A stretch of DNA of 58,777 nt from Patescibacteria group bacterium (GTDB lineage Bacteria > Patescibacteriota > Kazan-3B-28 > UBA10110), in contig JAFGPN010000003.1 of assembly GCA_016936175.1 (NCBI GenBank), positions 1-58,777 on the forward strand, in the 5' to 3' direction. A program made the translations under genes and the position numbers. This document shows, one piece after another, positions 9,455 through 58,777 of this stretch. The notes under the pieces are model-generated. The model did no database searches and was not told the DNA's origin. It saw only the letters and a list, made by a program, of their open reading frames with translations. Position 1 is the first letter of the stretch; each line of letters starts with the position of its first letter.

Positions 9455-9710
9455 CCCTTGCCGAGCCAAGCGTGAGCCGGCTTCTTCTCCCCCGCCATCG
9501 GAGGAGCCAAGCCCCATCCCCATTGAGCCAATTATGTCAGCCAATGGTAAAACTACCGCTAGGGCGCGATCGTTGTTTGAGGCCAGCTCCACAGGGAGAT
9601 GGCCGAGTTCGATCAATATAAGCCCAGTAAGGTAGTTTTGCCTTTTGGGTAATAATTGGCGATTGGGAAGCGACTTTGGTTACTTTCCTCAAGCGGAAAG
9701 TAACAATTAA
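9455..9710 (-). repeat. ~250-bp structured repeat, copy A
   Basis: Shares CCCCGCCATCGGAGGAG, GTTGTTTGA-hairpin-GAGTTC and TTTGGTTACTTT..AAAGTAAC blocks with copies at 17728, 19393 and 58617. Confidence 0.75.
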
Positions 9711-9729
9711 ATTAAGAAGGGATGTTGTA

Positions 9730-9933
9730 CGATTCTGGACCTCTCGATAAGCTCGAGACATGGCAAGCCAGAATGACGGCGAAACTAGATTCCTGCCTGC
9801 GCAGGAATAACGGGGAAAGGGCCTGGATTCCGGATCAGGTCGGGAATGACAATTCAACAAAAAGAAAAAGACCCCGAAGGTTCAGGGTCAATTCCAAATG
9901 ATATTGTAGGATCCTGGACGAAGCCAGGATGAC
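9730..9933. repeat. Cluster of four GTCAT-family REP palindromes
   Basis: GATTCTGG..CCAGAATGAC, GATTCC..GGAATGAC, GATCCTGG..CCAGGATGAC. Confidence 0.8.
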
Positions 9934-9955
9934 GCCGCACGGTAAATGGCGTCAA

Positions 9956-10420
9956 TTAGTGGACTTCTAGGATAGTGTACTGTCTTGCCCCGTCGGGTGT
10001 AGCAATATCAACCTTGTCGCCCTTTTTCTGCCCCATCAGAGCCCGACCAATCGGTGACTCATTACTAATCTTGCCTTCCGCCGGATTAGACTCATTCGAG
10101 CCGGTAACGATAAATTCTTTGGTCTGGCCATCTATCTCCACTTTTACGGTGGACCCTAAGGCTACCCGACCATTGACCCGATTATTGTCATCAATCACTT
10201 TAGCTACCTTCAACATCGACTCGATTTCGACAATGCGACCCTCGATAAAAGATTGCTTGGTCTTAGCCTCTTGATACTCAGCGTTTTCGGAAAGATCGCC
10301 AAACTCCCGCGCTTCTTTGATTTTAGCGGTAATCTCTTTTCGCTCCTCTAATAATTCGGAGAGCTCAGTCTTTAATTCCTCTAAACCGGCTCGCGATATG
10401 TACAAATCCTGTTGTGTCAT
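9956..10420 (-). CDS. greA: Transcription elongation factor GreA
   Basis: GDLSENAEY, ISNESPIGRALMG. Confidence 0.97.
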   Translation of the reverse strand: MTQQDLYISRAGLEELKTELSELLEERKEITAKIKEAREFGDLSENAEYQEAKTKQSFIEGRIVEIESMLKVAKVIDDNNRVNGRVALGSTVKVEIDGQTKEFIVTGSNESNPAEGKISNESPIGRALMGQKKGDKVDIATPDGARQYTILEVH

Positions 10421-10510
10421 AGGTGATATTTAACAATAAACAAACCCGCCCCCTTATAGATAATGTATATATTTAAGCGAAGAGGAGCATATCTGTCAAT
10501 AGGATAAAAA

Positions 10511-11359
10511 TTAGCTCCTAGAGCTTAAAATCTTGGCCGCCTGGACGACATTATTAATCAAGGCACTCACGGTCAGCGGACCAACACCACCCGGCACTGG
10601 CGTAATGTGGCTGGCCCGCTTAGCAGCATCAGCAAAATTAACATCCCCCACCCAGTGTTTACCCAGCTTATTGATGCCAGCATCAATCACTACCGCACCC
10701 TTTTTTATCATCTTCCCCTTAATCAAATGAGGTACTCCGGCAGCAGTAATTAAAATATCCGCCAATACAGTTTTGTTCTTAAGGTTTTTGGTCGATTCGT
10801 TTAGAATGGTAACACTCGACTTTAAATTAGCTAGCAAGATACTTATCGGCATACCCGCCACTTTACCAAAGCCCACCACCGTTACATCTTTGCCTTTTAA
10901 GGTAATGTGATATTTTTCGATTAACTGCCAGATGCCTAAAGCCGTAGCCGGAATAAATCGAGGCTGACCTAGCTCCAATAAACCAAGGTTTTCTGCCGTT
11001 AAACCATCTACATCCTTAAGCGGGTGGATTGCGTTAATTAACTTTACTGCATCAAATTTTTTGGGTACCGGTAACTGAACGATAATTCCGTGAACTTTTT
11101 TATTACGATTAAAGGCGGCCACAGCCCGTAATATCTCTGCCTCGCTTACTCTGCCCGGGAAATCCTTTAGCCAAAAATTAATTCCTAACTTGTGGCATAG
11201 TTGGCGTTTTTTCTCGACGTAGATACGCGAATCCGGCGTAGCTCCTACCATAATTATTGCTAAACCCGGCGTAATTTTTTTACGCCGCAACTTAGCTACT
11301 TCAAGCTTTAGTTCGGCATGTTGTTCGGTAGCTAATTTTTTTCCATCCAGTAAAATCAT
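10511..11359 (-). CDS. folD: Methylenetetrahydrofolate dehydrogenase/cyclohydrolase
   Basis: GIIVQLP, KDVDG, TPVPGGVGPLTV. Confidence 0.96.
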   Translation of the reverse strand: MILLDGKKLATEQHAELKLEVAKLRRKKITPGLAIIMVGATPDSRIYVEKKRQLCHKLGINFWLKDFPGRVSEAEILRAVAAFNRNKKVHGIIVQLPVPKKFDAVKLINAIHPLKDVDGLTAENLGLLELGQPRFIPATALGIWQLIEKYHITLKGKDVTVVGFGKVAGMPISILLANLKSSVTILNESTKNLKNKTVLADILITAAGVPHLIKGKMIKKGAVVIDAGINKLGKHWVGDVNFADAAKRASHITPVPGGVGPLTVSALINNVVQAAKILSSRS

Positions 11360-11366
11360 GGGGGAA

Positions 11367-11470
11367 TTTCTAATATCTAGTTTCTAATGCCTAAATAATG
11401 TCCAATCCCCAGTGTCTAAATTCTCGGGATTTAATTAAAAATTAGCAATTAGACATTAGGCATTATTGGG
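11367..11470. repeat. Inverted arrays of 7-mer repeats (TTTCTAA/TATCTAA ... TTAGACA/TTAGGCA)
   Basis: Same architecture at 14890-14927, 23808-23905 and 24655-24762. Confidence 0.75.
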
Positions 11471-11473
11471 AGG

Positions 11474-12553
11474 TCAGATCCATTTGAGAATATCCTTGTA
11501 GGTAACAGCCAAAATGAGCAACATTAGTAACGCAAATCCGATAGTATGTACAACCCCTTCGACTCGTTGTGAGATTTTTTTGCCACCCCTAACCACTTCT
11601 AAACCAATAAACAGTAGCCGACCACCGTCTAAGCCAGGGAAGGGAACTAAATTAAGAATGCCCAGGTTAATCGACAGAAAGATAACAAACTGCAACATTC
11701 GTAAAGCGCCTAACTGTACCAAATCTGCAGTAATGCGAGCGATTCCTACCGGACCCGCCAACTCGGGAGGGATGCTGGCAGTGGTAAACAACTTATAGAT
11801 TAGGCCGACTACCGCCATCACCACTACCAAAATTATCCGCCAGGTCTCTTGCAGGGCAATCCAGGGTACCTGCCACCAGACATACCTCACCTGTTGAATC
11901 GCCCGATCGATCCAAGCCCCTATCACTACCCCGTCGGGTGTAACCGTAGGTTCGACCGATACTGCAATCTGTTCGTTCGCCCGTTCTATCTGTAGTTCAA
12001 CGGTGTTACCAGATTTGTCGGCCAGTAAAGATTTAAACTCAGCTGGGCTGTTGGCCGTCACCCCATCAACCGACAAGATGTAATCTCCTGGTTGAAGTTG
12101 GGCGGCTTGAGCCGGAGATTTGTCCGCCACCTGTAGCACCATTACCTTGCCCTGCACCTGAGTATCGGGAGCATAATCCTCCACAGGACCAATCATCGGT
12201 GGCATCGATAACCAAAACCCAACCATTAAAAGTACCCAAGCTAGCGCGAAGTTCATTAGTATTCCACCGCCCATCACCCAAAACCGCGCTCCAGGGCTTT
12301 TACTAATTAAAGAATGTTTGCCAGCTTTTTCATTTGCGCTCTCACCATAAAGTCGAACAAATCCGCCAAACGGAATCCAGTTAATCGAATAAATGGTGCC
12401 GTTTTTCTTAATCCCCCAAATTCGAGGCGGCATACCAAATCCGAATTCTTCCACCCTAACACCACTGCGTTTAGCAAAATAAAAGTGACCCAGTTCGTGT
12501 ACTAAGATAACTAAAGTAAAAACAACAATAAACGCAATAATGGCTACAAACAT
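11474..12553 (-). CDS. rseP: RIP metalloprotease RseP with PDZ domain
   Basis: HELGH, NLVPFPGLDGG. Confidence 0.95.
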   Translation of the reverse strand: MFVAIIAFIVVFTLVILVHELGHFYFAKRSGVRVEEFGFGMPPRIWGIKKNGTIYSINWIPFGGFVRLYGESANEKAGKHSLISKSPGARFWVMGGGILMNFALAWVLLMVGFWLSMPPMIGPVEDYAPDTQVQGKVMVLQVADKSPAQAAQLQPGDYILSVDGVTANSPAEFKSLLADKSGNTVELQIERANEQIAVSVEPTVTPDGVVIGAWIDRAIQQVRYVWWQVPWIALQETWRIILVVVMAVVGLIYKLFTTASIPPELAGPVGIARITADLVQLGALRMLQFVIFLSINLGILNLVPFPGLDGGRLLFIGLEVVRGGKKISQRVEGVVHTIGFALLMLLILAVTYKDILKWI

Positions 12554-13624
12554 TTAGCTAACCCGGTTAACAATAAAATCTATCCATTGGCCAAACAGTT
12601 GTTTAGCTCGCGAATCAGATAGGCACTCAAGCGCCGCCCGAGCTTTGTCAGCATATTTATTTGCCAGCGCCTCGGCGTAATCGATTGAACCTAACTCTTT
12701 TAGTATAGTATGAATCTTCATCACCTCTGTTTCTGATGCCTGTTCATTGCCCAATACGGATAATAACTGCTTTTTCTGGTCTGCGTTAGCGGTGCGATAA
12801 GCATGCGCGATTATCACGGTCTTTTTACCCTCGCAAACATCCGACCCGATTGGCTTTCCTAATTCTTTTTCATCTCCCACTACCCCCAAAATGTCATCTC
12901 TAAGCTGAAACGCTAAACCAGCGTCTAAACATATCTGTTGAATAGTTTTAACGGTGGGGTGCTCTTTATCTAGCTTATTGATCCCGATCATTGCTCCTGC
13001 CTGTCCGGCAAAACCAAAAGTAGAAGCAGTTTTTCTGGCTAACATCTCCAAGATCATCTCCTCTGTTACCATCTCAAACGACATCTTGGAATAATCTAAG
13101 TCCAAAGCCTGACCAGACATCACCCGCGGCACCCAGTAGTTGGTCATCTCGTGAATGATATAACGAAAAACCGCGGTATCAACCTTGTCGCTGAGTTCAT
13201 TTATCATACTTATCGCCCAGGCTTGCTGTAGGTCCCCCACTAACATCGCCATGCTTCTGGCATATTGTTCTAATTCGGCGCGATCTTTGATTTTGGGTTT
13301 ATTAAATTCGCGGTAGTAGGCATGCACACTCGGGCCGCCTCGACGCAAATCGTCATTATCGATCAAATCATCGTGCACCAATGTCCACGTATGCGACATC
13401 TCGATTGCTGCTGCTGCTGGAAGCGCTAACTTGGAATCGCCACCAGCCGCTTCACACGCCAACATCAAAATGGCCGGCCTAAGCATCTTACCGCCCCGAG
13501 CAGTATACAGGCTGGCTCCATCTGCTACATATTTGGGCATCAACTGTAGCCGAAACGGACTACTCAAGATGTAATCGGCAATCAACCGCGCCTTGTCTTG
13601 TAGTTCCGACTTAAGATCAACCAT
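12554..13624 (-). CDS. Trans-polyprenyl diphosphate synthase, GGPP synthase-like
   Basis: HDDLID.DDLRRG (FARM), FQLRDD (SARM), EGKKT. Confidence 0.9.
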   Translation of the reverse strand: MVDLKSELQDKARLIADYILSSPFRLQLMPKYVADGASLYTARGGKMLRPAILMLACEAAGGDSKLALPAAAAIEMSHTWTLVHDDLIDNDDLRRGGPSVHAYYREFNKPKIKDRAELEQYARSMAMLVGDLQQAWAISMINELSDKVDTAVFRYIIHEMTNYWVPRVMSGQALDLDYSKMSFEMVTEEMILEMLARKTASTFGFAGQAGAMIGINKLDKEHPTVKTIQQICLDAGLAFQLRDDILGVVGDEKELGKPIGSDVCEGKKTVIIAHAYRTANADQKKQLLSVLGNEQASETEVMKIHTILKELGSIDYAEALANKYADKARAALECLSDSRAKQLFGQWIDFIVNRVS

Positions 13625-13629
13625 AAAAA

Positions 13630-14310
13630 CTATTTACCAAAATTTCGTTTTCGTTTAGCGTACTCACGAACAGCCTTGGATAGTTCCCGTCCCCCAAAGT
13701 CCGGCCACAAGGTATCGGTAAAATAAAGTTCGCTATATACGCTCTGCCACGGCAAAAAATTACTCAGTCGCATCTGACCACCGGTACGAATAATCATATC
13801 CAAATCTGGTAGCCCGGCTGTATCGAGATGAGCGGCTAAGCTTTTCTCGTCAATGCGACCATTAGCTCTGCTAGCTTTTTGCGCCGCGCGCGCTAGCTCG
13901 TCTCGACCACCATAACTTAAGGCAATCGTTAATACATCTCGCCGATGATGTTTAAGCCGATTAACTGATTTGTCTATAATGCTCTGTAAATTTTTAGGGA
14001 AATCTTTAACCCGACCGATTACTTTCAGCTGAACTTGCTCACGATCCATCTTGTCGGCGTATTCACGGATGGTTTTGCCCAAAAGCGTTAGCATGGCATT
14101 GACCTCGGTTTTATTACGCTTCCAATTTTCGGTCGAAAAAGCGAACACTGTTACGTGATGAATCCCCAGCTTTTTACAGGCCTGGGCAGTTCGGTCCAGC
14201 GCCTTAACTCCCTCTGCATGACCCAAGCCAACCGGTAGCCCTCTCTTTTTGGCCCACCGGCGATTGCCATCCATGATAATTGCCAGATGCTTAATCTGAC
14301 TCTTAGCCAT
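13630..14310 (-). CDS. uppS: Undecaprenyl diphosphate synthase
   Basis: IMDGNRRWA, FSTENWKR, IRTGGQMRLSNFL. Confidence 0.96.
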   Translation of the reverse strand: MAKSQIKHLAIIMDGNRRWAKKRGLPVGLGHAEGVKALDRTAQACKKLGIHHVTVFAFSTENWKRNKTEVNAMLTLLGKTIREYADKMDREQVQLKVIGRVKDFPKNLQSIIDKSVNRLKHHRRDVLTIALSYGGRDELARAAQKASRANGRIDEKSLAAHLDTAGLPDLDMIIRTGGQMRLSNFLPWQSVYSELYFTDTLWPDFGGRELSKAVREYAKRKRNFGK

Positions 14311-14318
14311 AGTATTAA

Positions 14319-14873
14319 TTAAATCGATTTGAGATCGGTAGCCTTCCGCTCTAGCAATCCGTCAATCTCGGCGATGCCGTTATCGATCAGTTGCTGATAT
14401 TCTTTTTTAAATCGTTCCTGATCATCCTCGCCGACGTTACCGCTCTTGGCTTCCTGCTCCATACGGTCGATTGCATCACGGCGAGCACTTCTAATACTTA
14501 CTCGGGCCTCTTCGGCTAATTTATGGGCTATCTTAACTAGCTCGTTGCGCCGCTCGTCAGAGAGCGGTGGCACGCTAACTCGCACTCGATCGCCCTCGTT
14601 GGTTACCCCTAAACCTAGACCGGATTCGCTGATGGCCTTCTCGATCGCTGCCACATTGGCTTTATCCCACGGTTGAATTAGCAACTGTCTGGGATCCGGA
14701 ACCGTTACTCCAGCTACCTGATTAAGCGGCATCCGTTGGCCATAAACATCGACCACAACCTTATCCAGTAAAGAAACTGATGCGCCGCCGCTCCTTATGC
14801 AAACGAACTCCCCAGTTAGATGAGTAAGAACTCCTGCGATTTTACTATTTAACTCTCGCTTAACATCCTCCAT
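14319..14873 (-). CDS. frr: Ribosome recycling factor
   Basis: PDPRQLLIQPWD, PPLSDERR. Confidence 0.96.
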   Translation of the reverse strand: MEDVKRELNSKIAGVLTHLTGEFVCIRSGGASVSLLDKVVVDVYGQRMPLNQVAGVTVPDPRQLLIQPWDKANVAAIEKAISESGLGLGVTNEGDRVRVSVPPLSDERRNELVKIAHKLAEEARVSIRSARRDAIDRMEQEAKSGNVGEDDQERFKKEYQQLIDNGIAEIDGLLERKATDLKSI

Positions 14874-14930
14874 TATTTACTCCCGTGGTTTACTAATTTC
14901 TTATTAGAAATTCGTCATTAGACATTTTGT

Positions 14931-15521: not shown

Positions 15522-15525
15522 GGCT

Positions 15526-16383: not shown

Positions 16384-16488
16384 GCCTAATTCTCCTTAAT
16401 TACTTCCGGCCGGATCCCCTCGGATACAGATCCCGGTAAACCGGGACAGGATGCATCCGATCCCCGAACCGTGCTTATTACTCCTAAA

Positions 16489-17593: not shown

Positions 17594-17727
17594 AGGACAC
17601 TGCCCTGAGCGAGCGTGGCATTCCCATCACCCTGTCATCCTGGAGACACTTTACTGCCGTAGGCTCTATAGATAGCTCATTCAGGATCCAGGCCGTGAGG
17701 CCGTTTTGTTTTTACCAATATCCTTTC

Positions 17728-18020
17728 GCTACCATTTTGCTCGCCCAAAACGGTAGCACCAAAAGGGCGGCCCGACTACACCAAGCTATCCGTAATGTAA
17801 AATATGGCTTACCGCTAATGGGTCGAACTCCCCAGCACTTAACTTAAGTGCTGGGTCAAACAACGATCCCGCGACGCCGATTTTACAAACGGCTCACGCT
17901 TGGCTCCGTAAGGGCATAAAAGTACGTTCCTCCTCCGATGGCGTAAATAAAAAACAGGCCGCTCGAGCCAATGGCGGAAAAACCACACGGCACAGGGGAT
18001 GCTTCTCCTCCAATGGTGAG
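17728..18020 (+). repeat. ~250-bp structured repeat, copy D (opposite strand)
   Basis: Reverse complement contains GCCATCGGAGGAG, GAGCCAAGCGTGAGCC and GATCGTTGTTTGA-hairpin-GAGTTCGA, as in copy A. Confidence 0.65.
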
Positions 18021-18235
18021 AAAAACAATAATCACCCTTTACAAGCCAAGGAAACCAGAGGTACAATTACCACTCGGATCAGACCTTGAAAAAATATTAG
18101 CGGTTCTGATATAGACCGGTTCTGGACTACCAGAACACGAATAAGCCCAGGGTAATGTAACCTGCGCTCCTGCTGCTCGTCCCAGTTAGAGACGAAAAAT
18201 TCTTGCGGCCAATCTGAGCCAAAGGAGACTGCATT

Positions 18236-18937
18236 GTGGGTCAAAATGTAATAAATGAGGTCACTGTGGGCGAGCTTAATGCCTTAGTCCGCGCTGTTGG
18301 TGGCGTCGACAACCTGGAGGGCATTCTCAACGGTTCTAAGCAAGTAACCGTGAATGATATCCCACTTTTCACGAAAATAGGAACTGCCACCATTACCCCA
18401 ACCAATTCTGGTGATGCAGTGAGACTGTTATCGGGGAAGCTCTTTGTGCAGTTTGCAAATAGCTGTATCACGCAGATGAACATGCACGAATTCCTCCTGG
18501 AGGAGTTTAAGCATCGAAAGTCTGCGCCGATTCCCAAGATGATACTGAGTTACACCAATCTCCAACGTAAGCCTGTGCGCAAAGAGTTCAGTTACAGATC
18601 CTTCAGAGGTTCCGAGTCTCTCCCCGACAGCTTTGTCTTTGAGAGTGGAACGCTCTTTTCTCTCCTCTTCGATATGCTGTCTCTCCAGATAAACGGCGAG
18701 AAGGGTCATCTGATTACTAATGGTGGGGGAAATGTCTTCTATGCCGGGCATCGGGAAAACGTAACTGACGCACTGTATCCTCTGAGCGTATGTTTGGTCT
18801 GGCATGCAGAACCACATATCCCCTGGTACATGTGGATAGATCCCCACTTCAATAACCCTGGTGAGAGGTACCTGCAACCAGGAAATCGCATCTTCATCCC
18901 TGGTGACCATTCCGTCTTCACAGGAACCAAGCGGTAG
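18236..18937 (+). CDS. Hypothetical protein
   Basis: 233-aa ORF with AAGGAG SD, an upstream promoter-like TTGAAA-18-TATAGA and a downstream terminator. Confidence 0.7.
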   Translation: MGQNVINEVTVGELNALVRAVGGVDNLEGILNGSKQVTVNDIPLFTKIGTATITPTNSGDAVRLLSGKLFVQFANSCITQMNMHEFLLEEFKHRKSAPIPKMILSYTNLQRKPVRKEFSYRSFRGSESLPDSFVFESGTLFSLLFDMLSLQINGEKGHLITNGGGNVFYAGHRENVTDALYPLSVCLVWHAEPHIPWYMWIDPHFNNPGERYLQPGNRIFIPGDHSVFTGTKR

Positions 18938-19313: not shown

Positions 19314-19392
19314 CTGATTATCTATTACAAAGGCGAGTATATATGGAAACGCCCCGACTGGTCAACCCCACGTCATCCAAACCAGAGCGATT

Positions 19393-19630
19393 CCCCCGCC
19401 ATCGAAGAAGAGCCCTTGTCTTTCTTATCCCATTGAGCAAATTGCGCTTACTCCCGCCATTGGAGCCCGAGTGTCCCGAATCGATAAAATTAGCGCTGCC
19501 GAAGCTGTTGTCTGAGCCCCGGTATACCGGGACGAGTTCAGCGAGAGGCGGAAAGCTATATTTTATCTGATGAGGAGCGAGGGCGACTGGCGGAAGATTT
19601 TGGTTACTTTTCTCGGAAAAGTAACAATTA
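19393..19630 (-). repeat. ~250-bp structured repeat, copy B
   Basis: About 110 bp nearly identical to copy C (58650-58777). Confidence 0.8.
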
Positions 19631-19745
19631 AGTTAAAGGTTAGAAGGGAAACGGCGCTTCGCTGGATTCTTCGCTACGCTCAGAATGACAGCATATTCAT
19701 TTTTCTGTCTGGACTCCCGCCTGCGCGGGAATGACGACATTGTTA

Positions 19746-27551: not shown

Positions 27552-27574
27552 CGTACTGCTCCTTTCTTCTTGGT

Positions 27575-27800
27575 GTCATTCTGAACTCGTTTCAGAATCT
27601 TTCTGATTCGAGATCCTGAAATAAATTCAGGATGACATTAAATTATTTAATAAATTGTTTAATTATCCTTATTGTCATTCCGACCTCTCCTCTTTGTCAT
27701 TCTGACCTCTCCTCTTTGTCATTCTGAGTGAAACGAAGAATCTATAAATATTCTTATATCCTTCGTCCCGACTCGTCTGGGCTCGAGGACGACAAGTCGA
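27575..27800. repeat. Cluster of GTCAT-family REP palindromes, with a direct duplication
   Basis: GTCATTCTGAA..CAGAATCT, GATCCTGAA..CAGGATGAC, and (GTCATTCYGACCTCTCCTCTTT)x2. Confidence 0.8.
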
Positions 27801-28253: not shown

Positions 28254-28382
28254 CCCGTTAGAAACTTAAAAAATAACTTCTGAAACTTTTGTGATAAAAA
28301 ATTTTGCATATCTTTATTGGTTGATTAGCGAGTAGTAAAAATAATTTACCAATTATTTTTACTACGAGGTTCTAATGGGGTG
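28251..28382. mobile_element. 132-bp inverted-repeat cassette at the nrdR start
   Basis: CACCCCGTTAGAA versus TTCTAATGGGGTG, 12/13 match; the nrdR GTG start is in the left arm; internal 15-bp perfect inverted repeat. Confidence 0.6.
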
Positions 28383-29751: not shown

Positions 29752-29998
29752 AAATCTTTTTTCTAATCAAATTGTCTGCTCCCACAAAACAAAACCGGCC
29801 AATCCCTCCCAAGTTATCCACCACAACCGGATTGTGGATAAGCCCCATTAGAGATTGCTCCCTACCCCGTCATCCTGAATTTATTTCAGGATCTATAGAT
29901 GCTGAAACGAGCCTGTCCGCGGACGCGGGATGCGGCCAGGGTTCAGCATGACAATTAACTTTTTATTGTTTATTGCCGGATCGGAAGCGGGGTAAGGC

Positions 29999-34205: not shown

Positions 34206-34491
34206 CCCGTTAGAAGCCCTTAGCAAAAAATAATTTTAACCGGTTTCGAATATATCGTTTACCCATAGCGGATTTGAGATATCGTTCTCGCGCCCTCGCA
34301 TCATCCCGCTCAAGAGACACTTCATAATAAATCAACTTCCACGGTGTTCCACAGATTTAGTTGATGTATTTTTATCGCCATTGTGGGTTAAAATTCTTTT
34401 TTACAGATCGTTGGTGAATCCAGTATACAGCTTCCCGTTGCGTTGACTAACCAGAACATAAATGTACCACTTAGATTGGATTCTAATGGGA
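34205..34491. mobile_element. 287-bp inverted-repeat cassette carrying a GIY-YIG gene
   Basis: TCCCGTTAGAA versus TTCTAATGGGA, 10/11 match; hisS TAG stop in the right arm, nuclease TAA stop in the left arm. Confidence 0.6.
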
Positions 34492-36707: not shown

Positions 36708-36837
36708 CCCGTTAGAAATTCTTGGCGCAAAAATACTTTAGTTTTTTTACGCGCGCTAATTATTATGGAGTGAAGTGAGCAGTTATTCATCTTTAGTTAA
36801 TGGTTTAGGGTTATCTTCGACAAATTTCTAATGGGAT
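36706..36837. mobile_element. 132-bp inverted-repeat cassette between secD and secF
   Basis: ATCCCGTTAGAAATT versus AATTTCTAATGGGAT, 14/15 match; the secF ATG overlaps the left arm. Confidence 0.65.
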
Positions 36838-39544: not shown

Positions 39545-39669
39545 CCCCATTAGAGATTCTTGGCAAAAATACAAGGTATTTTTGCGGCTCACCCTCTCGC
39601 CAACAGGGTATAATCTTGGTGGATGCTGATATCAACCCTTGCAAACATAATGGTAAATCTCTAATTGGG
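39545..39669. mobile_element. 125-bp inverted-repeat cassette at the thpR start
   Basis: CCCCATTAGAGATT versus AATCTCTAATTGGG, 13/14 match; the GTG start begins on the last base; internal TATAAT at 39609-39614. Confidence 0.55.
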
Positions 39670-51960: not shown

Positions 51961-51980
51961 AGCATTAACCGATTACCAAC

Positions 51981-52006
51981 CCCCGCCGAAAGGCGGGGTG
52001 TTTTTT
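51981..52006 (+). terminator. thyX terminator
   Basis: CCCCGCC-GAAA-GGCGGGG-TGTTTTTT. Confidence 0.8.
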
Positions 52007-52601: not shown

Positions 52602-52763
52602 TTACCCCGTTAGAGTTAGGAAGCGTTGGCGCTTCCGTTAGCTAATTAATATGACCAACCAGACCGTTCCGGCAAACCGGAACTAGATTCTTCGGCTAAC
52701 GCCTCAGAATGACACAATCGAGAAATTTTTGTAATTTATATTTTTTAATTAACTTGCCACTTA

Positions 52764-53216: not shown

Positions 53217-53227
53217 ATCTTCCTTCT

Positions 53228-53279
53228 GTCATCCTGAATTTATTTCAGAATCTAGATTCTGAAATTAGTTCAGAATGAC
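53228..53279. repeat. GTCAT-family REP doublet
   Basis: GTCATCCTGAATTTATTTCAGAATCT / AGATTCTGAAATTAGTTCAGAATGAC; similar at 29869-29951 and 54198-54249. Confidence 0.85.
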
Positions 53280-53285
53280 ATCGTA

Positions 53286-54074
53286 TTAAAGCGAGCTGAG
53301 ATCCACCTTAATTCCAGGGCCCATAGTCGAGGCCAACACTATCTTTTGGAGATATGTGCCTTTGGCCGAAGCCGGACGAGCACTAGATAATGCCTTAAAT
53401 AAAGTAGCAAAATTGCTCGTTAATCCATCTTTACCGAGCGAAATTTTGCCAAAACCAACATGAATAATGGCATCCTTGTCTAGTCGAAATTCGACCTTAC
53501 CCTTTTTGAATTCGGTCACTGCTTTGGTTACATCCTTGGTTACCGTACCGGTCTTGGGGTTAGGCATCAAACCCTTGGTACCCAAAATCTTACCGATCTT
53601 GCCAATTTTAACCATCATCTCAGGGGTAGCGATAGCCACGTTAAATCCCAGCCAACCATTTTTGATCTTTTCGACCAGGTCCTCACTACCAACAAAATCA
53701 GCACCCGCCTTTTTGGCTTCTGTAGCCTCGGCACCTTCAGCAAACACTAAAACCGTGGTGTCCTTACCCAATCCTGCTGGCATCGCCACCGTTCCCCGAA
53801 TATTTTGGTCAGCCTGCTTAGGGTCCAACCCAGTTTGAATATGCGCTTCGACCGTAGCATCAAACTTAACCGGTGATGTCTGCACCAATAAGTCCAGCGC
53901 TTCTTGAATCGGGTATAACTTAACCCGGTCAACTAGCTTGACCACGTCTAAATACTTCTTGCCTCGACCCCCCTTTGCTCTGCGGGCTACGGAGGGCTGC
54001 ACCTCGCTTACCGTCGTCTTCTTACTGACCCGCTTACCCGCTGATCTGCTAACCTGCTTTTTCGTATCTACCAT
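53286..54074 (-). CDS. rplA: 50S ribosomal protein L1 with N-terminal extension
   Basis: KFDATVE, GLMPNPKTGT, STMGPG; SD AGGAGG. Confidence 0.97.
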   Translation of the reverse strand: MVDTKKQVSRSAGKRVSKKTTVSEVQPSVARRAKGGRGKKYLDVVKLVDRVKLYPIQEALDLLVQTSPVKFDATVEAHIQTGLDPKQADQNIRGTVAMPAGLGKDTTVLVFAEGAEATEAKKAGADFVGSEDLVEKIKNGWLGFNVAIATPEMMVKIGKIGKILGTKGLMPNPKTGTVTKDVTKAVTEFKKGKVEFRLDKDAIIHVGFGKISLGKDGLTSNFATLFKALSSARPASAKGTYLQKIVLASTMGPGIKVDLSSL

Positions 54075-54085
54075 CACACCTCCTC

Positions 54086-54178
54086 GTGGTTTTACCCCGT
54101 AGCGACATACCGCTGAAATTGCGGCTAAGCAATTTCCGGTTTGTCCGGTATGGGGACTAGCGCCGTTAGGCTCCCACA
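54086..54178 (-). promoter_or_regulatory. L1-binding leader with an inserted palindrome
   Basis: GTGGGAGCC...TAAAACCAC frame; insert 54110-54139 matches 2612-2641 at 29/30. Confidence 0.65.
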
Positions 54179-54254
54179 ATTATGGATATAACCTTTCGTC
54201 ATCCTGAATTTATTTCAGGATCCATGTGCTGAGACTAGTTCAGCATGACATTTT

Positions 54255-54692
54255 TTAATTGCCGTTCCCGTTACCAATTTCAACGCCCATATTTCGGGCT
54301 GTACCTTCGATAATCTTCATCGCGGCCTCTACATCTTCGGTATTTAAATCGGGCATCTTGCGTTCCGCAATCTCCCTAAGCTGTGCTTTCGACAGCTTGC
54401 CTACCTTGACCTTGTGGGATTCACCGGAGCCCTTGTCTAACCCCGCTGCCTTCTTAATCAGTACCGAGGCTGGGGGTTGCTTGAGAATAAACTTAAAACT
54501 TCTGTCTTCGTAGATAGTTACCACAGCCGGGATAACCATCCCCGATAGGGCCGACGTCTTCTCGTTGAACTCCTTACAAAACTCCATGATCTGAATACCA
54601 TGGGGACCTAGAGCAGTACCAACTGGAGGGGCCGGGTTTGCCTTTCCTGCCTCTACCTGTAGCTTAACTATCGCGATAACCTTCTTAGCCAT
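54255..54692 (-). CDS. rplK: 50S ribosomal protein L11
   Basis: [27 protein letters not shown]. Confidence 0.98.
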
Positions 54693-54719
54693 ATTTATCT
54701 TATGGAGTAGTACTTCGAT

Positions 54720-54748
54720 ACTATAAAGCCACCCCCCAGGGGTGTCAA
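54720..54748 (-). promoter_or_regulatory. rplK promoter
   Basis: TTGACA-17-TATAGT. Confidence 0.7.
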
Positions 54749-54763
54749 GCGCCCAGGCCCATC

Positions 54764-55294
54764 TTAAGCAACGACCCGCGAGCCAAATAGCTGGATAGTT
54801 TTGGCCACCTCCTCGGGGATACCGTCAATACAAGGATAGTTCTTAACCTCTGTAGCGTTGACCCAAGCATATGCGGTAAACCCACCCTTTTCTGGGATCA
54901 CCTCTCCGCCCAAGTACTTGGCCGCAACTTTTACCATCATCACCGGTATCTCGTCTGGACGGACAAACGCCACACTGTTGATATATACCAAATCCGTGGT
55001 ATCAATCTCTACGTTGGCCTCCTCTTTGGCCTCACGTCTTAGTAAATCCTCCAACATATCGTTATAATCCAACACCGTGCCGCCATTGATGTTGGTGGGG
55101 TGATTTAGATCGATATCCCCCCACTCTAACTTCCCACCTGGCATCGACCAGCGACCCGGATGAACCTTTTCTCTTTCATCTCTTTTTAGGATTAAACACC
55201 GGCCATCAGATTCCCGGTAGACCACTACATTGCCTACAAAATAAAACAGTTTATTTTGTTTGGCGTTATCCAAACTGATTCTAGTCGCTACCAT
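54764..55294 (-). CDS. NUDIX hydrolase
   Basis: PGGKLE...[10 protein letters not shown] with an insertion in the Nudix box. Confidence 0.85.
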
Positions 55295-55380
55295 AGCTTA
55301 AACCTATCATCCAACCTCGCATAAGACAACGCGACCAGCCGTTAGGGCTAGTCGCGGTTTGCTCAACAATGCGAACAAAA

Positions 55381-55551
55381 TTACGCCGCTGCTTCGTCCG
55401 TACCACCGGCAGGCTGGTCGCCTTCGGCAGGCTTCTCTTCGGACGCAGGCACTTCTTCTGCGGTGTCAGGAGACTGAACAGGTGCCTCTTCAGGCTTCTG
55501 GGAGTCATCCTGAGGGGTAGGGGTAATGGGAGTCATGTTCTGATCATCCAT
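55381..55551 (-). CDS. Small acidic low-complexity protein (56 aa)
   Basis: Not in the supplied ORF track; AGGAGG SD; MDDQNMTPITPTPQDDSQKPEEAPVQ...DEAAA*. Confidence 0.65.
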   Translation of the reverse strand: MDDQNMTPITPTPQDDSQKPEEAPVQSPDTAEEVPASEEKPAEGDQPAGGTDEAAA

Positions 55552-55647
55552 CACAAACCTCCTATGAGTTAACCAATATAGTGCTCGTCTATACTAACAA
55601 ACGGGCTAATAAAAATCAAGGCTTTTATCAGTCCCAGACCATTTTTC

Positions 55648-55722
55648 TGGAGCCGGAGAGAGGAGTCGAACCCCCAACCTTTGCTTTACAAAAGCACTGC
55701 TCTGCCATTGAGCTACTCCGGC
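55648..55722 (-). tRNA. tRNA-Thr(TGT)
   Basis: GCCGGAG...CTCCGGC-TCCA; loop TTTGTAA. Confidence 0.92.
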
Positions 55723-55838
55723 TTAATCTTAGGGTTACGATTGGAAAGTTGCCCATGCTACGCTCCAAGGAGCTACGCAGGGCAGTCTTCGCTTTTTGTG
55801 GGCAAAGCCAGGCGTAGCTACCGTTAGGTAGCGAAGAC

Positions 55839-55914
55839 TGGAGCCCGCGAGCAGATTTGAACTGCTGACCTACCCCTTACCATGGGGTTGCTCTACCAAC
55901 TGAGCTACGCGGGC
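55839..55914 (-). tRNA. tRNA-Thr(GGT)
   Basis: GCCCGCG...CGCGGGC-TCCA; loop ATGGTAA. Confidence 0.93.
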
Positions 55915-56000
55915 TGGTGCCGAGGCTAGGATTCGAACCTAGGAAGGCATAAGCCAACGGTTTTACAGACCGCTCCGTTTGACCACTTCGGTACCTCGGC
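55915..56000 (-). tRNA. tRNA-Tyr(GTA)
   Basis: GCCGAGG...CCTCGGC-ACCA; loop CTGTAAA; long variable arm. Confidence 0.93.
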
Positions 56001-56023
56001 TTTATAAATTTTCAGGTGCTAAA

Positions 56024-56644
56024 TTATTTTAGCTTTTCTTCTGCTTCTGCCAAGAGCTTTTTGTATTCGTCGTTATGCGGCTCTAAGATTAAAGCTTTTT
56101 CGTAGGCATCGGCTGCCTTGCGATATTTTTTAGACATAAAGTAGGCCAACCCCAAATTCATAAACCGAGAAGCCACTTTATTGTTAATTGCAATGGATTT
56201 TTCGTAACTTTCTATCGCCTCGTCATACATCCCCTGCTGATAGAATAACAACCCAAAATTATTGTAAAAGGTATCGTTGTCTGGCTCGATCTGAAGCGCC
56301 TGCTCCAGAGCCGTAGCCGCATCTTTGTACCCTTTATTGCCCAAATACACCAACGCCAATTTATTATACAAACCGGCATCCTGTGGATCTTTTGTGATTA
56401 ATTTAAGATACAGTTTCTCAGCCTTGGCGTATTGCCCATCTTTGGCTAACTTATCGGCTCGGCTTAGCAGGTCCTCGTCTTCCTCGTCTTCCTCGCTTTT
56501 TTTATCGTCACCTTCGCGGTCCAAATCGCGAGCCTCCTTGGCTAACTTCTTAACCACCTCTTTTTCCAAGGGGAGCTTTCTTAGAACGATAATCAGCAAG
56601 ATTACCGTAGCCGCAAAAATTATCAGCTCTAACATAGTTACCAT
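56024..56644 (-). CDS. Membrane-anchored TPR protein
   Basis: N-terminal TM; about 4 TPR repeats. Confidence 0.88.
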   Translation of the reverse strand: MVTMLELIIFAATVILLIIVLRKLPLEKEVVKKLAKEARDLDREGDDKKSEEDEEDEDLLSRADKLAKDGQYAKAEKLYLKLITKDPQDAGLYNKLALVYLGNKGYKDAATALEQALQIEPDNDTFYNNFGLLFYQQGMYDEAIESYEKSIAINNKVASRFMNLGLAYFMSKKYRKAADAYEKALILEPHNDEYKKLLAEAEEKLK

Positions 56645-56687
56645 GTTACAGGCTTTGTAAACTGATTATATCCTGTTGGGGAGAGAA

Positions 56688-57632
56688 TTATAAGTCTTTG
56701 TTGGCCCCCAGCACTAATGCTTCTGCCACTACTCGGACGTTGGCCCCTCCAGCCAGGGCCCCATCGGCTTCTTGCAACCGTGCCAAAAAGGCGGCTAATC
56801 TCCGCTCGTCTGGCAAATTTTTTACCCCGGTCAACCAACTAATTGGCTTATCTCTAAGTTCAGCTACCATCAATCTTCTGGTCAGGTTTGTCCAGGTGGT
56901 TACTAAATCGCTAGCTACTGCCCTATCTTTAATGTTGGCTGTGACCATCCCTTTAATCAAATCTTTGCTCAGCAAGGCTTTAAAAGCCTCGACCTGAGCC
57001 ACTCCCTGTTCTAACCTCTCTTCATTTTTTGCTAGGTCATCTGCAATACCCAAAGCCCCATTGGCCAGCAAAATAATCTCCTCAATACGTTTCACTTTCT
57101 TGTTTTTAAAATAATCCCGGATTTCATCATCGGATAGGCTGTGCAATCGGATGATCTGTGCCCGAGATCGAACAGTCGGCAACACGGCATTAATATTTTG
57201 CGCGGTGATAACTATCCTGGCATGCTTCGGAGGCTCTTCTAAGGTTTTAAGTAGTGCATTGGCCGCCGAAACACTCAACCTATCAACATCGCCCACTATC
57301 AATACACGATAATCTCTATGCGGCGACAGATTGATTAGATGTACTGTATCATCTACTGTTTTTTTCCACTTGTTGTCTTCACCTTCGCCACTATTGGCGG
57401 AAAGTATCTCGTCAAAGACAATAGTATCCAAATTGGGTTTACCAATATCGATGGCATTATGCCAGCTGGCCGCCATTATCCGTGCCAATAACCCCTTGCC
57501 AACATGGGGCGGCCCCACCAACAGATACGTAGAACATCCCCCTGCTTCCAGGGACCTGCTCACTAACTCCTTGGCCATCTCCTGGCCAACCAGCAGCTTT
57601 AAGTTTGTATTTAAAATCTTTTTCTCCACCAC
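56688..57632 (-). CDS. holB: DNA polymerase III subunit delta'
   Basis: GPPHVGK, AANALLKTLEEPP, LPTVRSR. Confidence 0.88.
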   Translation of the reverse strand: MVEKKILNTNLKLLVGQEMAKELVSRSLEAGGCSTYLLVGPPHVGKGLLARIMAASWHNAIDIGKPNLDTIVFDEILSANSGEGEDNKWKKTVDDTVHLINLSPHRDYRVLIVGDVDRLSVSAANALLKTLEEPPKHARIVITAQNINAVLPTVRSRAQIIRLHSLSDDEIRDYFKNKKVKRIEEIILLANGALGIADDLAKNEERLEQGVAQVEAFKALLSKDLIKGMVTANIKDRAVASDLVTTWTNLTRRLMVAELRDKPISWLTGVKNLPDERRLAAFLARLQEADGALAGGANVRVVAEALVLGANKDL

Positions 57633-57805
57633 CCACCATCATATATCACCCCGCATCATCCAATCTACATCCCAAGCGGATAGATATCAGATTTGGGATG
57701 AGATTCGGATTGATATCGGGGACAAAATAAAACCCCGCTCTCTTCGCCAGCTTTCGCCGACAAATTGATTGGGGTTAAGAGGATTCTCTCCGCGCGACAA
57801 TATCG

Positions 57806-58495
57806 CTACTCATGCATCAGCATCTCGGCCGGGTACGGATCGATATCACCCTTGGCGATGCACTCGACGATCCGCCGCGCCTCACCACCACAGAGTCGCA
57901 ATGCCTTGGCAATATCGCCCTGAATCCAATCCACCAGCAGTAGCCGAATCCGCTTGTGCGGCATGTACTTAGTGAGCATCCGCCGTAGCCGCGGCCCATG
58001 GTAGTTACAGGAGATCACCACCAGGTCGGTGACCTCGCTGACACCGATCATCGGATGCTGAGCCATCGCCAAAAACTGGGTCTTGGTGTTGCCCACGCCG
58101 TCCGGCCCGCAGTCGATATCGATGATTTCGTCCTCAACCAGACCACAGTCGCGCGCCTTGGCGTGCATGTCGGGGAGCTGCTCGGCGGTGCCGTTTAACA
58201 CCAGCTGGAAAGGTGAATCGACTCCGAAGGGGAGACGCGCCCTCAATGAGATCAGCACGTTGACTCCCAGTGTAATGCGCACCGAGTTCTCCCGATTACC
58301 CCCGTCACCGGGGGCTAACATTACCACGACATACTCCCCCCGAATATCTTCTGGATGGATATATCTGGCAGAGACCAGACCCTCCAGCAGTGCATCAGGG
58401 AACTCGTGCTGGAACAGATGTTCGATAAACCGCTCCGACGAGGCCGCAGGATCTGGCAATATACTGCCATCACTAGATAAGAATTGGTCGGGCAT
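57806..58495 (-). CDS. Hypothetical protein, YdcF/DUF218-like fold
   Basis: GNTKTQF...LVVISCNYHGPRL resembles the DUF218 T.eN...vT..yH.pR pattern; SD AGGAG. Confidence 0.55.
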   Translation of the reverse strand: MPDQFLSSDGSILPDPAASSERFIEHLFQHEFPDALLEGLVSARYIHPEDIRGEYVVVMLAPGDGGNRENSVRITLGVNVLISLRARLPFGVDSPFQLVLNGTAEQLPDMHAKARDCGLVEDEIIDIDCGPDGVGNTKTQFLAMAQHPMIGVSEVTDLVVISCNYHGPRLRRMLTKYMPHKRIRLLLVDWIQGDIAKALRLCGGEARRIVECIAKGDIDPYPAEMLMHE

Positions 58496-58578
58496 ATAGC
58501 ACTCCTAATTTTCATCTCTCCCTTATTTACCGGTGTCTGATGTCTCCGGATCTATCTAAGGAAGGACAAGTTAGCCCT

Positions 58579-58607
58579 ACCCTATCAAAAAATCCGCCCC
58601 CAGTCAA
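58579..58607 (-). promoter_or_regulatory. Promoter directly after repeat copy C
   Basis: TTGACT-17-TAGGGT. Confidence 0.45.
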
Positions 58608-58616
58608 CCTTTTTCT

Positions 58617-58777
58617 CTCCCCGCCATCGGAGGAGAAAGCCCTTATCCCATCGGAGCCCGAGTGTGCTGAATCAACAAAACCACCGCTGACGAAGCTGTT
58701 GTCTGAGTCCCGGTATACCGGGACGAGTTCAGCGAGAGGCGGAAAGGTGGTTTTGTTAGATGAAGAACGAGGGCGAC
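58617..58777 (-). repeat. ~250-bp structured repeat, copy C (truncated by the window edge)
   Basis: Near-identical to 19460-19590. Confidence 0.8.

Follow-up and report, generated by a model that had tools for sequence, protein, structure and literature searches.

The four repeats (copies A to D) in the window, the whole 58,777-nt stretch of DNA that we analyzed, are members of an uncatalogued family of folded elements of about 200 bases from one order of Kazan-type Patescibacteria. We have moderate confidence that the element is an ORF-less, orientation-specific mobile repeat and that its single-stranded fold is the selected feature. The original prediction was a functional RNA rather than a neutral MITE. 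The conserved fold, a covarying pseudoknot, and a nonrandom orientation fit that idea, but copies are missing at the corresponding sites of congeners, subtypes are swapped, and some species do not have the family.

In the organism's own 670-kb genome, nhmmer and a covariance model identified 18 rods (the helical core of the element) and one short variant, at 18 or more loci. All four predicted copies are present, far beyond chance, but four was an undercount. Across the same order, 21 of 25 genomes carry 1 to 33 copies, and none of 55 genomes of the phylum from outside the order has any. One model retrieves all copies. Three subtypes of rod coexist in both families, and protein identity between the families is about 52% at the median. 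Two genomes (G017 and G022) lack the family, and three other species of the same genus have 14 to 18 copies; the absence from two of the five sampled species of that genus was verified by a full nhmmer scan for one of the two. When the whole window was compared to Rfam 15, only four tRNAs reached the gathering score, and the element did not match any family. Permissive Rfam scans of copies A, B, and C gave only chance-level matches, with ilvH at 24.8 bits (cutoff, 55.1) and mir-351 at 14 bits (cutoff, 70).

We describe the unit on the strand that the original prediction treated as sense. A helix between a U-tract and an A-tract (P0) encloses a 5' hairpin (P1), which has two swappable variants, alpha and beta; in the alpha variant, the loop of P1 pairs with 5 nt just before the rod to form a pseudoknot. 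Next, 3' of P1, is the rod of about 140 nt, with six helices (P2 to P7), the last of which, the apical hairpin P7, varies between copies and is dispensable. An asymmetric loop within the rod, AACUC / UCARACAA, is conserved. This confirms the predicted arrangement of GAACTC, a variable stem-loop, and TCARACAA, including the variable stems as quoted. The motif CRATGG forms the 3' side of the closing helices P3 and P2 and covaries with its partner: column pair 5/183 shows a double change from A-U to C-G. Near-identical rods bear different 5' hairpins, which makes the elements modular mosaics.

The covariation that the original prediction expected is present. In alignments that were fitted to the structure, which is a caveat on the pairing figures, 91% of cells pair among the own-genome copies (34-49% in slid controls) and 87.5% pair among 45 copies from other genomes (35-49% in slid controls). 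Double changes affect 34 of 35 pairs in those 45 copies. Their covariation score of 0.496 compares to at most 0.117 in the controls and was reached by none of 500 shuffles. On the sense strand, the 1,397 cells counted include 1,212 Watson-Crick pairs, 12 G-U pairs, and 38 A-C mismatches. The pseudoknot, whose pairing crosses the hairpin, has at least 5 Watson-Crick pairs in 15 of 24 loop-tail combinations (versus 6% of mismatched combinations), and 7 or more sequence variants of it show covariation. The scaffold is a conserved single-strand fold whose stems are kept by compensatory changes.

Copy A (positions 9448-9723, reverse strand) lies between greA and lysS. It has a beta-type 5' hairpin (9679-9704), a type I rod (9518-9668), an orphan type II 3' unit (9493-9512), and a small shared module (9448-9479), all on the reverse strand. 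Copy B (17716-18020, forward strand) lies between lepB and an orphan ORF (18236-18937). The loop of its alpha-type 5' hairpin (17728-17757), CGCCC, pairs with a downstream GGGCG to form the pseudoknot; its rod (17770-17943) is chimeric, with a 27-nt inserted module (17890-17921), and further 3' units are found near 17963-17977 and 18002-18017, all on the forward strand. Copy C (19393-19645, reverse strand), between a DUF192 gene and rplU, combines a beta-type hairpin (19603-19625), a type III rod (19455-19592), an orphan type I 3' unit (19428-19447), and a type II-like 3' unit (19398-19417), again on the reverse strand. Copy D (58617-58777, reverse strand) is cut by the contig end and retains a type III rod (58651-58777) with its own 3' unit (58646-58665) and an orphan type II 3' unit (58622-58641), all on the reverse strand; the 5' half that it lacks lies at the beginning of contig C13 or C18. 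The terminal hairpins are as predicted: GTTACTTT..AAAGTAAC in copies A and C and GCTACC..GGTAGC in copy B. Repeats of CRATGG(CGGG) are present in every copy, but there are one to three of them, not always two or three. The neighbors of the window copies (lysS, greA, lepB, rplU, the DUF192 gene, and two orphan ORFs, with identities confirmed) are unrelated to one another.

Several observations point to recent copying. Four contig ends of the genome break within the element and have 44 identical nt in common. Another copy matches copy C at 97% identity over 139 nt, and a third matches copy D at 97% over 133 nt.

Comparisons to relatives indicate that sites are gained, lost, and overwritten. The congener G001 has no element at any of the three testable window sites (A, B, and C): the greA-lysS gap is about 48-70 nt (516 nt in the own genome), and the gaps at sites B and C are 24 nt (versus 1,386 nt) and 83 nt (versus 382 nt). 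The lepB-rplU gap of G001 lacks the orphan ORF at 18236-18937 as well as copy B. At least 6 sites of the own genome are empty in G016, a complete genome, and about five sites are common to the two families. In another congener, G002, the full-length copies at sites A, B, and C differ in subtype from ours, and sites A and C have the same older 3' remnants in both genomes. The extra 3' units of the own genome and G016 (8-10) all follow a full copy and share its orientation, and none is upstream or inverted (as a control, searching the reversed sequence gave 1 match per genome). The extra copies of CRATGG are orphan 3' ends left by older elements, which often belong to another subtype. These 5'-truncated remnants suggest that the copy is made from the 3' end.

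We propose that copying places the element in the short gaps that separate the terminator of one gene from the promoter of the next. A new copy would insert on or within a resident copy, in the same orientation, and of the old copy only the last ~20 nt, and sometimes also the first ~25 nt, would remain. A single-stranded form of the element, RNA or DNA, would be the substrate of the copying step, which would explain why the fold is conserved. We infer that the turnover reflects active mobility, that a single-stranded intermediate is recognized, and that an enzyme acts on it.

The orientation of the element is biased towards that of the neighboring genes. Between same-strand genes, 31 copies are co-oriented and 8 are anti-oriented (three samples pooled). 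The bias is nonrandom but not absolute: all four window copies are co-oriented, as predicted, but 3 of 20 copies in the genome are antisense to both neighbors, as are about 20% of copies when a further sample is included. In G016, 17 of 19 copies lie behind a co-oriented gene, typically 65-150 nt past the stop codon, and none is antisense to both neighbors; 6 of the 19 face a convergent gene and have no divergent promoter partner. Copy B follows the local gene direction, which is opposite to the local GC skew. Many copies in the other family, as well as copies A and B, are preceded by a terminator-like hairpin and a T-run. Upstream of copy A, in the element's sense, this is at 9870-9889 after greA (reverse strand); directly before copy B, our reading of the sequence gives GGCCGTGAGGCC and a T-run (17691-17714, forward strand).

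These observations bear on another explanation, to which we give a modest chance: the element could be transcribed on the gene-sense strand as the tail of the upstream operon and act as RNA, for example as a 3'-end stabilizer, as "punctuation" for processing or termination, or as a platform for proteins, with mobility being secondary (as for enterobacterial REP/BIME). The arrangement in G016 is as expected for such an RNA. Also, the lepB transcript of G002 should include the element, which sits after the lepB stop codon and before the shared terminator. The unpaired segments of the sense strand are A/C-rich and almost free of G, the three subtypes are kept across two families, and the covariation and pseudoknot demand a single-stranded fold. 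However, transcribing copy A, copy B, or the many similar copies in the other family would require read-through of the preceding terminator-like hairpin. Orthologous sites in congeners, and whole species, do without copies and have no visible replacement. Also, G-U pairs are rarer than A-C mismatches on the sense strand (12 versus 38 of the 1,397 cells), and the antisense copies do not fit.

It is unlikely that the element is instead a small-RNA gene on the opposite strand, which would be transcribed away from the neighbor's promoter region and would consist of the rod and then a 3'-terminal hairpin pseudoknot with U- and A-tracts. Two A-C positions are conserved, one inside the alpha hairpin (about 17 distinct modules) and the other in type I at the first pair of P3; read on that strand, each would be a conserved G-U wobble. 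By our own reading, the UC...UC that flanks P7 becomes GA...GA, which is the signature of tandem sheared G-A pairs. The opposite strand is also G-rich and has the lower folding energy in 16 of 16 copies, and its start would adjoin the downstream gene's promoter region, which is the proximity that the original prediction noticed. However, once corrected for composition, the folding z-scores are equal (-5.5 for sense and -5.7 for antisense), so neither strand is favored. Beyond the two conserved positions, A-C and G-U account for about 33 and 21 cells, which is not a significant difference. No conserved promoter was found for the opposite strand. The hairpin would be followed by A's, not U's, so it would not be an intrinsic terminator, and the 6 copies in G016 that face a convergent gene have no divergent promoter partner.

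Could these be nonfunctional DNA palindromes, in which the rod and hairpin are long imperfect inverted repeats with arms that are kept complementary by intrastrand templated repair or gene conversion and with no selection on any product? The pairing is almost purely Watson-Crick (1,212 of 1,397 cells, with just 12 G-U), neither strand is energetically favored, and other palindromic repeats crowd the same gaps. Nevertheless, we consider this quite unlikely. Homogenization of the arms would remove the asymmetric loops (AACUC versus UCARACAA, CUUUCU, and others), but these are conserved in two families and 11 genera. The pseudoknot, which covaries in 7 or more variants, crosses the hairpin. Finally, at ~52% protein identity, intergenic DNA is expected to be saturated, but a single model recovers every copy.

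The original prediction also placed the repeat just upstream of a promoter. A consensus scan found promoter-like sites only after copy B (TTTACA-18-TACAAT, 18038-18067, forward strand, before the orphan ORF at 18236-18937) and after copy C (TTGACC-18-TATACT, 19336-19365, reverse strand, before rplU), and not the box that was predicted for copy D; overall, such sites were no more numerous than in shuffled sequence. The extended -10 box of lysS (TGATATAAT, 9427-9435, reverse strand) is 11 nt before the ATG and is kept in G001. The site before rplU belongs to rplU and not to the element, since it is also present in G001, which lacks the element there. More broadly, the link to promoters is incidental: G001 keeps the rplU and lysS promoters at its empty sites, and the subtype differs in G002. 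Although all four window copies have a gene start downstream, two have consensus-like promoters after them, and each locus has 1-3 motifs, it is very improbable that the element is a promoter-proximal regulatory or insulator RNA whose single-stranded CRATGG repeats would be bound by a protein and affect the downstream gene, because the first motif is base-paired (P2 and P3) and shows covariation with its partner, the extra motifs are remnants of other subtypes and also occur in a congener with a different full-length copy, the downstream genes are mutually unrelated, 6 of 19 copies in G016 face a convergent gene, and promoters persist at empty sites.

Some results weigh against a mobile repeat: we found no transposase-like partner, no matching distribution of reverse transcriptases, no terminal inverted repeats, and no clean target-site duplication. 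The own genome has neither TnpB (PF07282) nor Y1 transposase (PF01797), whereas the control genomes gave positive results. PF01797 is present in 5 of 25 relatives and absent from the other 20, including complete or near-complete genomes that are rich in the element (G003, G005, and G013-G016). Reverse transcriptase (RVT_1) was not found in G001 (16 copies, 91% complete) or in G008 (13 copies, 96% complete), and G004, G019, and G022 have a reverse transcriptase and no element. Those that we did find are of the short DGR type, with frames of 355-361 amino acids. In present gene content, reverse transcriptases do not track the element; past activity may have occurred. The 5' end (U-tract and hairpin) is not complementary to the 3' end (CUCNAUGGCG). 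In the three comparisons of filled sites to empty sites in G001, other small repeats are mixed into the filled sites and obscure the element's own junctions, so no clean target-site duplication is legible.

Among known systems, the REP/BIME of enterobacteria and the REPINs of Pseudomonas are similar in being multicopy, ORF-less, structured, modular, and intergenic, and often lie behind stop codons; they are also mosaics of a few module types and may be both mobile and exapted. REPs are palindromes of ~35 nt with a conserved GTAG foot, often in inverted pairs, and are mobilized by a RAYT (Y1) transposase. In contrast, our unit is ~200 nt, has six rod helices and a pseudoknot, shows one preferred orientation and no inverted extra units, and is in a genome without PF01797. 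By description, pneumococcal BOX, ERIC/IRU, and Correia (CREE) elements are also intergenic and noncoding, with lengths of 100-200 nt and stable predicted folds, and BOX is modular (boxA-B-C). We know of no pseudoknot or multifamily covariation for any of these, and Correia and ERIC have the terminal inverted repeats and target-site duplications that we did not find. MITEs would also be expected to have terminal inverted repeats and an autonomous parent; among the matches listed for 22 genomes, there was no longer or ORF-bearing copy.

The palindrome-associated elements of IS200/IS605 and the omega-RNAs of TnpB/IscB are strand specific and have subterminal hairpins and structured scaffolds with pseudoknots. 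IS200/IS605-type elements are biased in orientation with replication and leading-strand genes, whereas copy B runs against the local GC skew; also, there is no Rfam match to HEARO or to IS605-type motifs, the own genome has no TnpB domain, and Y1 transposase is missing from it and from all complete relatives that are rich in the element. Bacterial class C group II introns insert immediately downstream of intrinsic terminators and point the same way as the upstream gene; our element likewise lies directly behind a terminator-like hairpin and T-run and is co-oriented with the upstream gene. However, it is ten times smaller, Rfam detected no intron RNA signature, the reverse transcriptases are of the DGR type, and RVT_1 is missing from G001 and G008, where the element is abundant. 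Like the attC sites of integrons, the element is a folded single-strand site whose structure is kept more than its sequence, with a fixed orientation behind genes and new units beside older ones. Unlike attC, it has no RYYYAAC/GTTRRRY cores that are evident on reading the sequences, the beta hairpin (GTTAC...GTAAC) has the opposite order, and copies are single and dispersed between housekeeping genes instead of forming cassette arrays. As in a structured RNA, base pairs are maintained by compensatory change, but the neighbors are unrelated and 3 of 3 testable window sites are empty in G001.

Overall, the evidence leans, with considerable reservation, towards a mobile structured repeat that is gained, lost, and overwritten between housekeeping genes, rather than a promoter-linked regulatory RNA. 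To our knowledge, its multihelix fold with a pseudoknot is more elaborate than that of any known MITE. Given this elaborate fold, the subtypes that are common to two families, and the roughly five shared sites, a function for the host fits as well as pure selfishness does, or better.

The repeat is best seen as a structured interspersed element that is new and specific to one order. The four stretches named in the original prediction, here called copies A to D (window positions 9448..9723 on the minus strand, 17716..18020 on the plus strand, and 19393..19645 and 58617..58777, both on the minus strand), can be aligned with each other in the orientation that it proposed, and the GAACUC, UCARACAAC, and CRAUGG regions are invariant or nearly so. 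All four copies are present, but the family is much larger: searches with BLAST and with an iterated nhmmer profile gave about 20 matches in the 670-kb, 18-contig assembly that contains the window (G000, with contigs C1 to C18), and a covariance model identified 18 rods and one short variant. Copy A lies between greA and lysS, copy B between lepB and an orphan ORF, copy C between a DUF192 gene and rplU, and copy D next to an orphan ORF. Copy D is cut because contig ends break inside the element. Four ends (the end of C12 and the starts of C13, C14, and C18) interrupt it, and they have 44 identical bases in common. Copies C and D each have a counterpart at 97% identity, over 139 nt on another contig for copy C and over 133 nt at the start of C14 for copy D. 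The element did not match any family in Rfam 15, at either gathering or permissive thresholds, and we found no description of the family in the published literature.

A MAFFT alignment of 16 copies yielded only 4 pairs with RNAalifold and was not usable structurally; instead, 15 complete copies were segmented by hand and padded with N's to fix the register. On the sense strand of the original prediction, P0 (YUUUUY with RAAAR) encloses the first hairpin, P1, which has 9-13 bp and comes in two interchangeable variants, alpha (GCYACC...GGURGC) and beta (GUUACUUU...AAAGUAAC). In the alpha variant only, the loop of P1 forms a pseudoknot with the 5 nt immediately 5' of the rod; we sought loop-to-tail pairing for the beta-type hairpin as well and found none that was convincing. 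The rod (~140 nt) begins with P2 (GCCA/UGGC), and therefore the "AUGG" of the predicted CRATGG motif is the 3' strand of P2. It continues with P3, which is subtype-specific; P4 (AAAAYNNCC/GGNNRUUUU); P5 and P6; a conserved asymmetric loop (AACUC/UCARACAA); and a variable apical hairpin, P7, which is missing from two copies. There are three rod subtypes, which differ mainly in P3 and in the 3' unit (the last ~20 nt of the element): ...GCAAUUUGCUCAAUGGGG in type I, ...CCUCCUCCGAUGGCG in type II, and ...ACACUCGGGCUCCAAUGGCG in type III. The short variant (C13:19767-19846 in G000) keeps the alpha hairpin, the pseudoknot, and P2, and lacks the rod from P3 to P4; the orthologous site in G016, a complete relative from the order's other family, holds a full type II copy. 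A search for an element-borne promoter 5' of P1 found an A/T-rich stretch with no -35 box at the proper spacing.

Covariation was scored in the 15 copies from G000 and in 45 distinct copies from other genomes, none of which were used in training. Standard pairs occupied 91.3% of the cells in the first set and 87.5% in the second, versus 34-49% and 35-49% if the partners were slid by 1-3 columns. Both sides had changed in 24 of the 35 pairs in G000 and in 34 of 35 in the other genomes. Both alignments were fitted to the structure, which biases all of these figures towards the fold, but the margin over the slid controls is still large: the covariation score was 0.529 in G000 and 0.496 in the other genomes, versus at most 0.10 and 0.12 for the slid controls, and none of the 500 shuffles of either set reached the observed score. 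In 15 of 24 distinct alpha modules, loop and tail can form an uninterrupted run of 5 or more Watson-Crick pairs at a constant offset; when loops and tails were mismatched, this was true of only 6% of 510 combinations. At least seven sequence variants of this pairing occur (CGUCC/GGACG, CGCCC/GGGCG, CCGCC/GGCGG, CACCC/GGGUG, UGCCC/GGGCA, GUGGCC/GGCCAC, and CCGG/CCGG). Homogenization of the arms of a palindrome is, by itself, a poor account of pairing that both crosses and covaries, which argues for a folded single strand.

Three ways of choosing the folding strand, by folding energy and z-score, by wobble counts in the aligned copies, and by wobble counts in P1, all failed. The raw minimum free energy was lower on the antisense strand for all 16 copies, but dinucleotide shuffles fold far worse than either strand and the mean z-scores are equal (-5.5 vs. 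-5.7). G-U and A-C cells numbered 9 versus 12 in the copies of G000, and 21 versus 20 in P1. If the gene-sense strand folds, then the co-orientation of the element with neighboring genes, its A/C-rich and G-poor loops, and the relics described below, which are 3' ends as expected if copying starts at the 3' end, would fit. If the opposite strand folds, then two positions that are conserved as A-C on the sense strand would be G-U pairs, and the UC...UC dinucleotides around P7 would read GA...GA. Also on that side, A-C cells exceed G-U cells in the relatives' copies (38 vs. 12), with 13 of the 38 at one conserved position and the remainder not significant relative to G-U. Fewer than 4% of cells hold a wobble pair of either kind; such a low share is uncommon in working RNAs and is consistent with a constraint at the DNA level or on both strands.

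Of 25 genomes of the same order, 21 (two families and 11 genera) contain the element according to the covariance model, with 1-33 copies each; in 55 genomes from the phylum's other families, the model found none. Across this one whole order, the element accounts for ~0.5-1% of the DNA. In one genus, 14-18 copies were found in each of three species and none in two others; in G017, one of the latter, nhmmer found no element in 553 kb. Both families hold all three rod subtypes (5, 6, and 3 copies in G000 and 3, 9, and 4 in G016), and the median protein identity between G000 and G016 is only 52%.

In the congener G001, all three of the window's testable sites (those of copies A, B, and C) are empty. 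All three are occupied in another congener, G002, by elements that differ from those in the window: site C holds type II with alpha (type III with beta in the window); site A, type III with alpha and a truncated older alpha hairpin upstream (type I with beta in the window); and site B, type I, with no orphan ORF. G000 and G002 also have in common older fragments downstream of the full copy, namely a type II 3' unit at site A and a type I and then a type II 3' unit at site C. When we scanned G000 and G016 with the three 20-nt 3' units as queries (the reversed-sequence control gave one match per genome), we found 8-10 extra 3' units in these genomes, all of them downstream of a full copy and in the same orientation; none were upstream or inverted, and neither genome contained solo 5' hairpins. 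Other genomes do contain some 5' remnants upstream of full copies. Thus, the extra CRATGG motifs are relics, and what had been read as 2-3 copies of CRATGG per element is one functional helix strand plus the relics of earlier elements. Between the families, G016 has no element at 6 or more of the G000 sites, where its gaps measure 40-600 nt; about 5 sites are common to both families, and several of these are only a few kb from DGR loci.

The orphan ORF beside copy B (window 18236-18937; 233 amino acids; no Pfam hit) is missing from the lepB-rplU gap in both congeners. In G001, this gap also lacks copy B, and one bidirectional terminator is common to both genes, 24 nt apart. A 32-nt module, CGGCTCACGCTTGGCTC[CG]G[TC]AAGGGCAT[AG]AAA, accompanies the element: it is found after copy A (window 9448-9479), inside copy B (17890-17921), and after the G002 copy at the lepB site (locus L090). 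A second family of small hairpin repeats, GTCATYCYG-loop-CRGRATGAC, is crowded into the same gaps, in most cases immediately 5' of the structured element (window 9727-9777, 9800-9850, 17630-17700, and 19663-19740), and also occurs at 6497-6547, 27574-27637, and 53227-53280. The motif TTTCTAATGGGG occurs at least 13 times outside long ORFs genome-wide (for example, at window 28370-28379, 29844-29853, 34481-34490, 36826-36835, and 39546-39555); it resembles the element's CTCAATGGGG and is not attached to the element.

The proposal that the copies are parked just upstream of promoters did not hold up: consensus-like promoters follow only copies B and C, and the total number of such sites is not above that in shuffled sequences. 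In G001, the DUF192-rplU gap has no element and keeps the same TTGAC-N17-TATATA promoter, 10 nt past the upstream stop codon. The greA-lysS gap of G001 is ~70 nt long, with a terminator and then immediately the same TGATATAAT box as in the window. In the window, this extended -10 box (within 9417-9440) lies 11 nt 5' of the lysS ATG and has no -35 box, and the arrangement in G001 is identical; lysS appears to be nearly leaderless. Since gaps without the element keep their promoters, the promoters belong to the genes, and the element just fills the sole free DNA, from the terminator to the next promoter. In both congeners, the -35 box of the rplU promoter contains a ~66-nt element with long inverted repeats (L089, G001:C10:20780-20863; L090, G002:C4:10139-10230; orthologous to window ~19365), with (G)TTGAC repeated on each side; the window does not have it.

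Co-orientation with transcription, which had been proposed to be universal, is a real bias (~80%) but is not absolute: in same-strand gene pairs, pooled, 31 copies are co-oriented and 8 are anti-oriented (P ~ 3e-4, two-sided binomial test). In G000, the sense strand matches the strand of at least one neighbor for 17 of 20 copies, and it is likewise the G-rich strand for 17; the exceptions are copy B (skew rule only), one other copy (gene rule only), and two copies that depart from both rules. In G016, all 19 copies have at least one neighbor on their strand: the preceding gene is co-oriented in 17 cases, the following gene is convergent in 6, and 2 copies lie in divergent gaps. With crude ORF calls for 29 copies from ~20 other genomes, both neighbors have the orientation of the element in 11 cases and the opposite orientation in 5. 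Because ~85% of genes are on one strand per replichore, this bias is not cleanly separable from a replication bias. In G016, the gene rule holds for 19 of 19 copies and the replichore rule for 17 of 19, which is suggestive, not decisive, evidence that orientation is tied to transcription rather than replication. GC skew in G016 is lopsided: it is about +0.2 in the half with plus-strand genes (25-300 kb), which holds 14 of the 19 elements, and about 0, not -0.2, in the half with minus-strand genes. Contigs C1 to C18 fall into the same two classes (absolute skew of 0.15 vs. 0.03-0.08). Many copies have a terminator-like hairpin and T-run directly 5', such as the greA terminator before copy A and GGCCGUGAGGCC with a U-run before copy B; in the other family, a conserved T-run and an extra hairpin lie ahead of the element.

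We also considered which enzymes might move the element. TnpB and Y1 transposase are both absent from G000, which does encode two DGR-type reverse transcriptases (RTs). Y1 occurs in 5 of the 25 genomes of the order and is absent from the complete or near-complete, element-rich genomes G003, G005, and G013 to G016. Across the order, the presence of RT is not correlated with the presence of the element: RT is missing from G001 and G008, which have 13-16 copies, and G004, G019, and G022 encode RT and contain no element. Nevertheless, 7 of the 11 RT genes for which positions could be compared have a co-oriented element 1.9-3.4 kb upstream, just before the presumed target gene, well above the chance expectation of ~5% (C14:16143-19240 and C13:30404-33363 in G000; 223067-225901 and 265454-268168 in G016; and loci in G015, G005, and G002). 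A screen for proteins that are present in G016 and G000 and missing from the element-free G017 returned the DGR genes, a UPF0102 nuclease, a GIY-YIG nuclease, and two PaaX_M/Cas2-like proteins. PF20803 (PaaX_M) is found in 14 of 20 element-bearing genomes versus none of 6 element-poor genomes (0-1 elements), and its genes are often multicopy, some with in-frame stops (at C14:4361-4576 in G000, and in 13 relatives). It was ruled out as a required partner since it is missing from the near-complete G003 and G005; it is a lead, not a partner.

In its location, modularity, and turnover, the element resembles REP/BIME or BOX-type repeats, but, by the criteria applied, it does not qualify as a REP/RAYT element, a classical MITE, an IS200/IS605 derivative, an attC site, or a member of any Rfam family. 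We give roughly an even chance to a copy-and-replace element that is orientation-specific and in which selection acts on the single-stranded fold as the substrate. A working RNA, from one strand or the other, is a serious contender that we consider somewhat less probable. Passive palindromes and the promoter model of the original prediction share the small probability that is left.

More speculatively, the element might be a bacterial "SINE": an ORF-less element, centered on an RNA fold, that would be recopied into DNA from its 3' end, therefore leaving 5'-truncated remnants, and that the DGR-type RT/Avd of these genomes would mobilize in trans. In a variant of this idea, the rod and pseudoknot would be a new transcript-end RNA device of CPR bacteria. 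The hints are the elements upstream of RT genes, the sites shared between families near DGR loci, and the extra fragments, which are all 3' ends downstream of a full copy; we regard either version as a long shot.

Few known genomes are as small and streamlined as those of CPR/Patescibacteria, and the organisms that carry the element cannot be cultured alone. The element stands out for its elaborate fold, a six-helix rod with a pseudoknotted hairpin, which has strong covariation support; for its three subtypes, which coexist in both families; and for having no known enzyme partner. In practical terms, the element breaks assemblies, as at the four contig ends in G000, and it accounts for much of the "non-coding" DNA between the housekeeping genes of these genomes. 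If the element is mobile, it would point to an undescribed way to copy ORF-less DNA in bacteria that do not have the usual transposases. A working RNA, by comparison, would constitute a new and abundant RNA class.
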